From a virus, in UHGV virus genome UHGV-0163616: 35,419 nucleotides of DNA; one strand, given 5' to 3'. This document shows positions 18,845 through 21,527 of this stretch, piece after piece. Position numbers and translations under genes: made by a program. The notes below the pieces were generated by a model. It did no database searches and was not told where the DNA came from. It was given only the letters and a program-made list of their open reading frames with translations. Every line of letters starts with the position of its first letter. Position 1 is the first letter of the stretch.

Positions 18845-19317
18845 ACCTCAATCTCTCTGACCGTTCCGCCTGCTTCTTTGAATTTTGCAATCAGGCTGTC
18901 AGCCTTATGCTCGAACTGACCATAACCAGCCCCCGGAAGTGAAGCCCAGATATTGCTGCAACGGTCGATAGCCTGACGAATATCACCGCGATCAATCATC
19001 GGTAAAGCGCCACGCTCCTTAATCTGCTGCAATGCAACAGCATCCTGGCTTTTAGGAGAGAAGTCTTTCAGGCCAAGCTGCTTACGATAGGCATCCCACC
19101 AACGGGAAAGAAGCTGGTAACGTCCGGCGGCTGTTGATTTGAGTTTTGGGTTTAGCGTGACAAGTTTGCGAGGGTGATCGGAGTAATCAGTGAATAGCTC
19201 TCCGCCAACAATGACGTCATAACCATGATTTCTGGTTTTCTGCCGTCCGTTATCAGTTCCCTCCGACCACGCCAGCATATCGAGGAACGCCTTACGTTGA
19301 TTATTGATTTCCACCAT
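18841..19317 (-). CDS. R: Endolysin (lytic transglycosylase), lambda R
   Basis: 158 aa; matches remembered lambda R essentially end to end ([35 protein letters not shown]...). Confidence 0.95.
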
Positions 19318-19624
19318 CTTCTACTCCGGCTTTTTTAGCAGCGAAGCGTTTGATAAGCGAACCAATCGAGTCAGTACCGATGTAGCCGATGAACACGCTA
19401 GTTATATAAGCGAGATTGCTACTTAGTCCGGCGAAGTCGAGAAGGTCACGAATGAACCAGGCGATAATGGCGCACATCGTTGCGTCGATTACTGTTTTTG
19501 TAAACGCACCGCCATTATATCTGCCGCGAAGGTACGCCATTGCAAACGCAAGGATTGCCCCGATGCCTTGTTCCTTTGCCGCGAGAATGGCGGCTAACAG
19601 GTCATGTTTTTCTGGCATCTTCAT
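19301..19624 (-). CDS. S: Holin/antiholin, lambda S (dual-start MKM)
   Basis: 107 aa; matches remembered lambda S107 essentially end to end, including the Met-Lys-Met dual start; DNA upstream matches lambda S leader. Confidence 0.95.
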
Positions 19625-19915
19625 GTCTTACCCCCAATAAGGGGATTTGCTCTATTTAATTAGGAATAAGATCGATTACTGATAGAACAAATCCAGGCTA
19701 CTGTGTTTAGTAATCAGATTTGTTCGTGACCGATATGCACGGGCAAAACGGCAGGAGGTTGTTAGCGCAGCCTCTTGCCACCCGCCTTCACGAAGCCAGC
19801 CATTGCGCTGGTTTTCTTTTATGCAAAGCACACCGCACCGTAGCCACAGCGGATAAGGTGATTATTTTTGTCTGTCTGGTATTTGGTTTGATGTGCTTTC
19901 AGAAAGGCCGTGCTT

Positions 19916-19950
19916 AAAACGCAAAAAGCCCCGAGCTATTAACTCAGGGC
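19916..19950 (-). terminator. tR'-like intrinsic terminator of the short PR' leader RNA (GCCCUGAG-UUAAUAG-CUCGGGGC then UUUUUGCGUUUU)
   Basis: Perfect 8-bp stem and U-tract on minus strand, about 30-65 nt downstream of the PR' start; read from sequence. Confidence 0.7.
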
Positions 19951-19986
19951 TTTATTTAACGAGTGCATTTATCCATCGTTAGGTCA

Positions 19987-20015
19987 AATTTACCCAACTT
20001 TATTCAAAAAGTCAA
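19987..20015 (-). promoter_or_regulatory. Late promoter PR' with qut-like pause region (-35 TTGACT, 17-bp spacer, -10 TAAATT; AACGAT pause motif just downstream)
   Basis: Minus-strand sequence ATTGACTTTTTGAATAAAGTTGGGTAAATTTGACCTAACGATGG is almost identical to the remembered lambda PR'/qut sequence; 40-70 bp downstream of the Q stop. Confidence 0.75.
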
Positions 20016-20057
20016 TATTATGCCGTTAATATGTTGCCATCCGTGGCAATCATGCTG

Positions 20058-20681
20058 CTAACGTGTGACCGCGTTCAAAATGTTGTCTGCAATTGACTCT
20101 TCCTTGTGGCATTGCACCACCAGAGCGTCATACAGCGGCTTAACAGTGCGTGACCAGGTGGGTTGAGTAAGGTTTGGGATTAGCATCGTTACAGCGCGAT
20201 ATGCGGCGCTTGCTGGCATTCTTGAATAGCCGACACCTTTGCATCTTCCGCACTCTTTCTCGACAACTCTCCCCCACTGCTCTGTTTTTGCTATATCAAC
20301 CGCACGACCTGTACCGTGGCAATCTCTGCATCTTGCGCCCGGCGTCGCGGCACTACGGCAATAATCCGCATAAGCGAATGTTGCGAGCACTTGCAGTACC
20401 TTTGCCTTAGTATTTCCTTCAAGCTTTGCCACGCCACGGTATTTCCCCGATACCTTGTGTGCAAATTGCATCAGATAGTTAATAGCCTTTTGTTTGTCGT
20501 TCTGGCTGAGTTCGTGCTTACCGCAGAATGCAGCCATTCCGAATCCGGCTTGTGATTGCGCCATCCCCATAGCAGCCATCACATCAGTACCGGAAAGAGA
20601 GTCAGAAGCCGTAGCCCGTGGTGAGTCGCTCATCATCGGGCTTTTTGGCGAATGAAATTTAGCTACGCTTTCGAGTCTCAT
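20058..20681 (-). CDS. Q: Late-gene antiterminator Q (lambda type)
   Basis: 207 aa; matches remembered lambda Q essentially end to end. Confidence 0.95.
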
Positions 20682-21343
20682 GCGCCTTCTCCCTGTACCT
20701 GAATCAATGTGAGGTTTCCGCAGAACACTGCGCCAGTATCGATATACATCTGGTTGGCAAATTTGAGTGGTTTCACTGCTGGCGTATGACCAAAGATGAA
20801 CGTGTCCGCGCCTTTGATTTCTTTCACGCTCCCGTCTTGTGAGTTGCTGATTCGTTCGCGGTTCCAGATTACCTGCTGATAATCAACTGGCTTTCCAAAT
20901 TCGTATTCGTCACAAGGATAATCGGCGTGGCAGATGACATATTTTTTACCTTTACTCACCAGTTCAATGATTAACGGAAGTTCATCTGCTTTATGGGCAA
21001 GAGCTTTAGCCAGAATTTCTTTGTCGTAATCGAGATTAAAGAACCAGCCACCGCCATTAAACAGCCAGTGATTGACGTTTCCACGCTCTGATAAGCCATC
21101 AATCATCATTTGCTCATGGTTTCCACGTACAGCTCTGAACCAGGGGAATGTGATTAATTCCAGGCATTCGACGTTCTCTGTACCGCGATCAACCAAATCG
21201 CCAACCGAGATAAGCAGGTCTTTTTTAGTGTCGAATCCTATCGTCTCCAGTTTTTTCATCAGGTTCGTGTAGCATCCGTGCAGATCGCCAACTACCCAAA
21301 TATTTCGGTATTTGCTGCCATCAATTTTTTCGTAATAGCGCAT
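20678..21343 (-). CDS. ninI: Ser/Thr protein phosphatase (lambda NinI / PPase)
   Basis: From internal ATG ([24 protein letters not shown]...) 221 aa, near-identical to remembered lambda phosphatase; GDLHG and GNHE metallophosphatase motifs. Confidence 0.9.
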
Positions 21344-21527
21344 CTCTTTCACTCCATCCGCGATGAACCATGAGAACGTCGTTGACGATGGCGTGCATTT
21401 TCCCGTCTTTATCATCAACGTATTTTCTGACCGTACCGCGACTACATTTCAGTCTGCGTGCTACTTCTGTCTGGTTTCCGTATGCTTCAACGAGCATGTC
21501 TGGAATGGTTTTTACTGAGAACGTCAT
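21321..21527 (-). CDS. ninH: NinH
   Basis: 68 aa, matches remembered lambda NinH ([37 protein letters not shown]...). Confidence 0.9.

Follow-up and report, generated by a model that had tools for sequence, protein, structure and literature searches.

We propose that the late-gene switch in the DNA analysed here is very probably the Q-PR'-qut-tR' switch of a P22-like E. coli prophage, in the allele found in P22, HK97 and HK022. The DNA (UHGV virus genome UHGV-0163616; 35,419 nucleotides, hereafter the window) is as a whole a P22-like E. coli prophage, with HK620, CUS-3, Kapi1 and phiv205-1 as relatives. Judging by sequence identity, its late leader is the standard leader of the P22/HK97/HK022 type, that is to say a separate allele, and not an unusual or shortened lambda leader.

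Organisation of the late-gene switch

The switch comprises the following elements, numbered from the predicted start (+1). Where transcription starts, that it pauses and terminates, and that Q allows read-through are all inferred by homology with lambda and P22.

20058..20681, minus strand: Q antiterminator gene, 207 amino acids, lambda type (PF03589)
19987..20015, minus strand: late promoter PR' (P late), with -35 TTGACT, a 17-nt spacer and -10 TAAATT
19980, minus strand: predicted start (+1 = A), in register with the lambda +1 at 44587
19975..19980 (+1..+6), minus strand: -10-like pause-inducing element AACGAT, with the same sequence and register as in lambda
19964..19965 (+16/+17; C16, A17), minus strand: expected sigma-70-dependent pause and Q-loading site, in register with lambda
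19923..19953, minus strand: intrinsic terminator tR' (t late), with a hairpin at +28..+56 and U5 at +54..+58
19796..19922 (+59..+185), minus strand: leader segment of the P22/HK97 type, without lambda counterpart and common to HK140, HK97 and Emek
19625..19795 (+186 to the S start codon), minus strand: lambda-homologous S leader, 166/171 identical to lambda 45015-45185
19301..19624, minus strand: holin gene S, the first late gene, with a dual-start ATGAAGATG motif; the S start at 19624 is +357

The Q protein matches the Pfam family Antiterm (PF03589, E = 1.3e-57), and it is identical to lambda Q at 206 of its 207 amino acids and to P22 gp23 at 202 of them (98%), while the gene shares 606 of 624 nucleotides with the lambda Q gene. 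Similarly, S matches Phage_holin_3_1 (Pfam, E = 2.4e-30) and has 320 of 324 nucleotides in common with lambda S. The genes around Q occur in the order NinG, NinH, phosphatase, Q, S, R and Rz. The phosphatase reading frame (20678-21418, minus strand; NinI-like, Metallophos) is listed with 246 amino acids from a TTG codon, lambda NinI having 221; its true start is probably an internal ATG (MRYYEKIDG...). This frame and the start of Q overlap by 4 nt.

The promoter PR' is located 42 nt past the Q stop codon, with its -35 hexamer at 20015-20010 and its -10 hexamer at 19992-19987, and it was the sole sigma-70-like site in a scan of 19000-21200. Both hexamers are the same as in lambda. The spacer, which is predicted to contain the Q-binding element established by work on lambda, matches lambda at 15 of 17 positions and P22 at all 17.

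By analogy with lambda and P22, we propose that PR' would fire constitutively, and that sigma-70 would re-bind the AACGAT element at +1..+6, RNA polymerase being held, scrunched, at about +16. In the absence of Q, the polymerase would leave the pause and stop at the hairpin and its U-tract, thereby yielding an RNA about 58-62 nt long. Once expressed from the early-right operon, Q would bind the promoter spacer and load onto the paused polymerase, and the Q-loaded, terminator-resistant polymerase would pass tR' to reach S, R, Rz and the virion genes. Since the hairpin starts at +28, well past the position (+16) where Q would load, the short leader fits this mechanism and need not be regarded as a defect.

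Terminator hairpin and predicted RNA

In the core stem of the terminator, GCCCTGAG (19950-19943) pairs with CTCGGGGC (19935-19928). The extended stem returned by the terminator scan has 13 bp, including 6 G-C, over 19953-19925; the loop is 3-7 nt long and the U5 tract occupies 19927-19923. An earlier reading of the window, made from the sequence only, had placed a terminator about 30-65 nt past the start, and the hairpin and U-tract found at these positions agree with it. The same reading had expected a much shorter 6S-like RNA, and the PR' RNA is indeed predicted to be terminated at about 58-62 nt, as compared with 194 nt in lambda.

The 62-nt RNA folds with -23.3 kcal/mol (z = -4.5), a value equalled by none of 200 shuffled sequences, and in its predicted structure an A/U-rich linker joins a 5' stem-loop to a 3' hairpin that carries a U-tail. 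No family match was obtained from Rfam, searched in E-value mode on 19000-21000 (E <= 1) and in gathering mode on the whole window; its sole hit was a chance snoRNA match (E = 0.23).

Comparison with the lambda leader

The terminator lies at about +58 in the window versus +194 in lambda. The lambda distance given in the sequence-only reading proved right when checked, since the stem of lambda tR' reaches to about +189 and the length of the RNA is 194 nt. Lambda tR', whose long stem is interrupted, escaped a simple terminator finder, and the alleles were compared without this tool.

The claim that Q and the PR'/qut/pause region match lambda almost exactly holds for the Q protein and for the promoter hexamers, but only 50 of the 59 positions from -35 to +24 are identical. 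The two sequences differ already at +9 (A for G), and again at +11, +15, +17 (A for G) and +24, which places the left junction inside the pause region and not past it. Further downstream, the leader was said to leave lambda and to rejoin it near 19800, and this is what we observed: identity resumes at 19795 (CTTCGTGAA), a position that corresponds to +186 in the window and to +429 in lambda, and it continues through the S leader. The intervening +25..+185 is unrelated to lambda +25..+428, only 114 of 405 columns being identical in a forced global alignment. As a whole, the leader from Q to S has 356 nt in the window versus 599 nt in lambda, i.e., it is 243 nt shorter. Because its internal 160 nt have no lambda counterpart, the window leader is no deletion derivative of lambda.

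These sequence comparisons support a leader that is a mosaic when set against lambda, its left junction lying at about +9..+24 and its right one at +186. The proposal of a junction inside the late leader was correct to that extent, but the accompanying description of a shortened lambda leader is not supported. The window has in common with lambda Q, the PR' hexamers, AACGAT, G+7, C+16, the S leader from lambda +429 onwards and S itself. By contrast, the window lacks the 6S body of lambda, orf-64 and the sequence targeted by the LPR2 probe (lambda 44816-44850). A homologous 194-nt body ending at lambda tR', as expected of a lambda 6S RNA, was not found in the window, where homology ends by +24.

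Sequence of the pause region

The pause depends on a G at -10, a pyrimidine where the RNA ends and, next to it, a G, this downstream G having a small effect (Bird et al. 2016, PMC5001585). Lambda possesses all three determinants. The window has kept G+7 and C+16, but its +17 is A, where lambda has G, and the GGG that follows the -10-like element in lambda is replaced by GGA. From these sequences, pausing is likely to be retained in the short allele, and the changes at +9, +11, +15 and +17 may make its strength different from that in lambda.

The same leader in P22 and other phages

The RefSeq record of P22 (NC_002371) has the following annotations.

37852-37880: 'P late or PR''
37871-37900: qut-like site
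37887: 5' nucleotide of the late RNA
37917-37945 (+31..+59): 't late or tR'; antiterminated by gene 23 protein action'

The window and P22 match at 57 of 59 positions from -35 to +24, and at 83 of 91 over +1..+90, where they differ within the loop of the hairpin and past the terminator. Both have the same terminator stems, the terminator spanning +28..+58 in the window and +31..+59 in P22, whereas the loop reads TTAATAG in the window and TTTAACCG in P22. Past about +90 the two leaders part (63 of 98 aligned columns match over +91..+185), and they lead to different holin genes, lambda S in the window and gene 13 in P22.

Using the 501 nt between Q and S as a query, we found 81 phage records in which at least 80% of it is covered. 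The same 501-nt leader, at 95-98% identity, is present in HK97, HK022, HK140, HK544, the mEp series, Sf101 and Emek, and the leaders of these phages show point differences only from that of the window; in HK97, a single additional base separates the -10 hexamer from +1. Parts of the short leader are annotated elsewhere, namely PR' and qut in HK140, and a rho-independent terminator at the same hairpin in Emek. The short late leader was thus already known, as attested by tR'/t late in the P22 RefSeq record, by the Emek terminator and by a citation in PMC7547250.

Allele frequency and mosaic junctions

Two common alleles occur behind one type of Q and qut, and the short one is about as common as that of lambda. 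Out of 5426 complete E. coli genomes, 334 contain the 181 nt specific to the short allele (262 at a coverage of at least 80%) and 502 the lambda-specific leader (219 at a coverage of at least 80%); laboratory strains account for several of the best matches to the latter. In IMG/VR, among the first 120 contigs listed as having the lambda-type qut and pause motif, 68 loci carry the short allele over +1..+62 and about 55 the lambda allele. Across the 68 short-allele loci, +1..+58 is nearly invariant. These 68 loci contain 16 distinct sequences, which vary mostly in the hairpin loop, and covariation was sought in the hairpin, but the diversity is too low to show any.

Mosaic junctions were mapped with blastn, each leader being compared with its reference allele. 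They cluster directly 3' of the terminator, at +58..+71 in the short allele and at +193..+221 in that of lambda, from which we propose that Q-PR'-qut-tR' moves as one exchangeable unit ending at the terminator. This clustering also provides indirect support, at the level of sequence, for the hairpins of both alleles being functional terminators. Furthermore, the short-allele leaders of IMG/VR follow either the lambda form of the spacer (TATTGAATAAAATTGGG, 11 loci) or the P22 form (TTTTGAATAAAGTTGGG), and exchange points must therefore also occur between the promoter and +9.

Hence the same Q and qut are followed by either of two common alleles, the 194-nt 6S leader of lambda or the allele ending at about +60, which is the norm in P22-like and HK97-like phages, and the 6S and LPR2 RNAs of lambda are not conserved across lambda-type Q modules. 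For annotation, PR' and tR' can be placed by identity in hundreds of prophages. On its own, the finding matters little.

Alternative explanations

A private and recent rearrangement, through which a deletion or recombination in a lambda leader would have shortened the 6S region in the prophage of the window only, is suggested by the lambda-like flanks (606/624 nt in Q and 166/171 in the S leader) and by the 243 nt that separate the two leaders in length. We consider it extremely improbable, given that the same leader exists at 95-98% identity in HK140, HK544, HK97, HK022, the mEp phages, Sf101 and Emek, as well as in 334 complete E. coli genomes, that P22 has the same promoter-to-terminator segment, and that nothing in lambda corresponds to the internal 160 nt. 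Were a single recent event invoked behind all these records, it would have to contend with the divergence between P22 and the window further downstream (63/98 columns). Another reading accepts the leader as it is, and supposes that the hairpin is not an effective Q-controlled terminator, the real block lying further downstream and the hairpin serving to stabilise or process the RNA. The leader does contain more hairpins, for instance at about 19777-19742, where the hairpin is followed by GUUUUG and is common to lambda, and the late RNA of lambda is processed in its leader, according to Daniels et al. (1988) as cited in PMC7547250. However, the hairpin at about 19777-19742 is no more stable than shuffled sequences (z = +0.39) and has only 4 U, whereas 19953-19923 is a textbook intrinsic terminator in which a G+C-rich stem is directly followed by U5. 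Moreover, the mosaic junctions lie directly past this first hairpin, which the annotators of P22 and of Emek both call the terminator, and a downstream block appears very unlikely.

The hairpin could also serve chiefly as the 3' end of a small RNA that is made in lysogens and acts in trans, similar to StxS or to the Hfq-bound lambda 6S RNA, with the control of termination as only a part of its role. In lambda, PR' is constitutive and lysogens contain its short RNA; the lambda 6S RNA is associated with Hfq and has RIL-seq targets (bioRxiv 10.1101/2024.10.31.621285), and StxS, from the PR' of Stx phages, is a functional small RNA (PMC7547250). The predicted architecture of the window RNA, with its 5' stem-loop, A/U-rich linker and 3' hairpin with a U-tail, and the near invariance of +1..+58 in 68 loci point in the same direction. 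Against this, the invariance is explicable by the recency of the allele together with the constraints on promoter, pause and terminator, the U-tail has 5 U only, Rfam holds no matching family, and the RNA has nothing in common with the lambda 6S body, the LPR2 probe target being likewise absent. We therefore regard a principal role in trans as unlikely, and favour the late-gene switch of the P22/HK97/HK022 type, with the hairpin as its Q-controlled terminator. As an addition to this switch, we hold it possible, though doubtful, that the RNA of about 60 nt would be constitutive in lysogens and act in trans, through Hfq or otherwise, and/or that the changes at +9..+17 would alter the kinetics of pausing or Q loading. 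If true, a function in trans of the short RNA would be relevant to many lysogens of E. coli, Shigella and Salmonella.

Relation to known late-leader RNAs

From a 258-nt primary transcript, RNase E generates StxS as an Hfq-binding RNA of 74 nt (Sy et al. 2020, PMC7547250). Like StxS, the RNA predicted from the window would be short, initiated at a constitutive late promoter, ended at tR' in lysogens and a by-product of Q control, but the late region of the StxS phages differs from that of the window. Early work cited in PMC7547250 reported short late RNAs regulated by antitermination in P22, 21, 82 and phi80. In lambda, LPR2 is a 63-nt RNA neighbouring 6S and associated with Hfq (bioRxiv 10.1101/2024.10.31.621285), and the PasD/STnc100 small RNAs are reported to adjoin PF03589 Q genes (bioRxiv 10.64898/2026.05.13.724894).

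The probe published for LPR2 corresponds to lambda 44816-44850, a stretch of the lambda-specific leader. The hairpin at about 19777-19742 was considered as the 3' end of LPR2 and rejected, as this probe has no match in the window. The identity of the short RNA with PasD/STnc100 was provisionally rejected from the lack of an Rfam match, which presumes that STnc100 is in Rfam. With neither an Rfam match nor the LPR2 probe target in the window, no sign was found of the Hfq-dependent late-leader small RNAs (StxS, 6S/LPR2, PasD/STnc100).

Neighbouring hairpins and reading frames

In the S leader, the minus-strand hairpin at about 19742-19777 has a perfect stem in lambda and one A-C mismatch in the window. 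A reading frame of 51 amino acids starting with GTG (19676-19831, minus strand) lies between tR' and S and spans the mosaic junction; in HK140 it is annotated as a hypothetical protein (HK140_065). It had no Pfam match and is probably not a gene.

On the plus strand, antisense to the late leader, a terminator-like hairpin occurs at 19792-19815 (GAAGCCAGC-cattgc-GCTGGTTTT, then CTTTTAT), exactly at the right-hand junction with the lambda homology. Lambda lacks this hairpin, which every P22-type leader examined, that of P22 among them, has kept with variations in stem length and loop. On the plus strand, no promoter-like site was detected in the scan of 19000-21200. Another terminator-like hairpin of the plus strand, at 20618-20636, is antisense to the 5' end of Q (nucleotides 46-64 of the gene), and its site matches the terminator of the a23 antisense RNA, the equivalent of lambda paQ, annotated in P22 at nucleotides 36-68 of gene 23.
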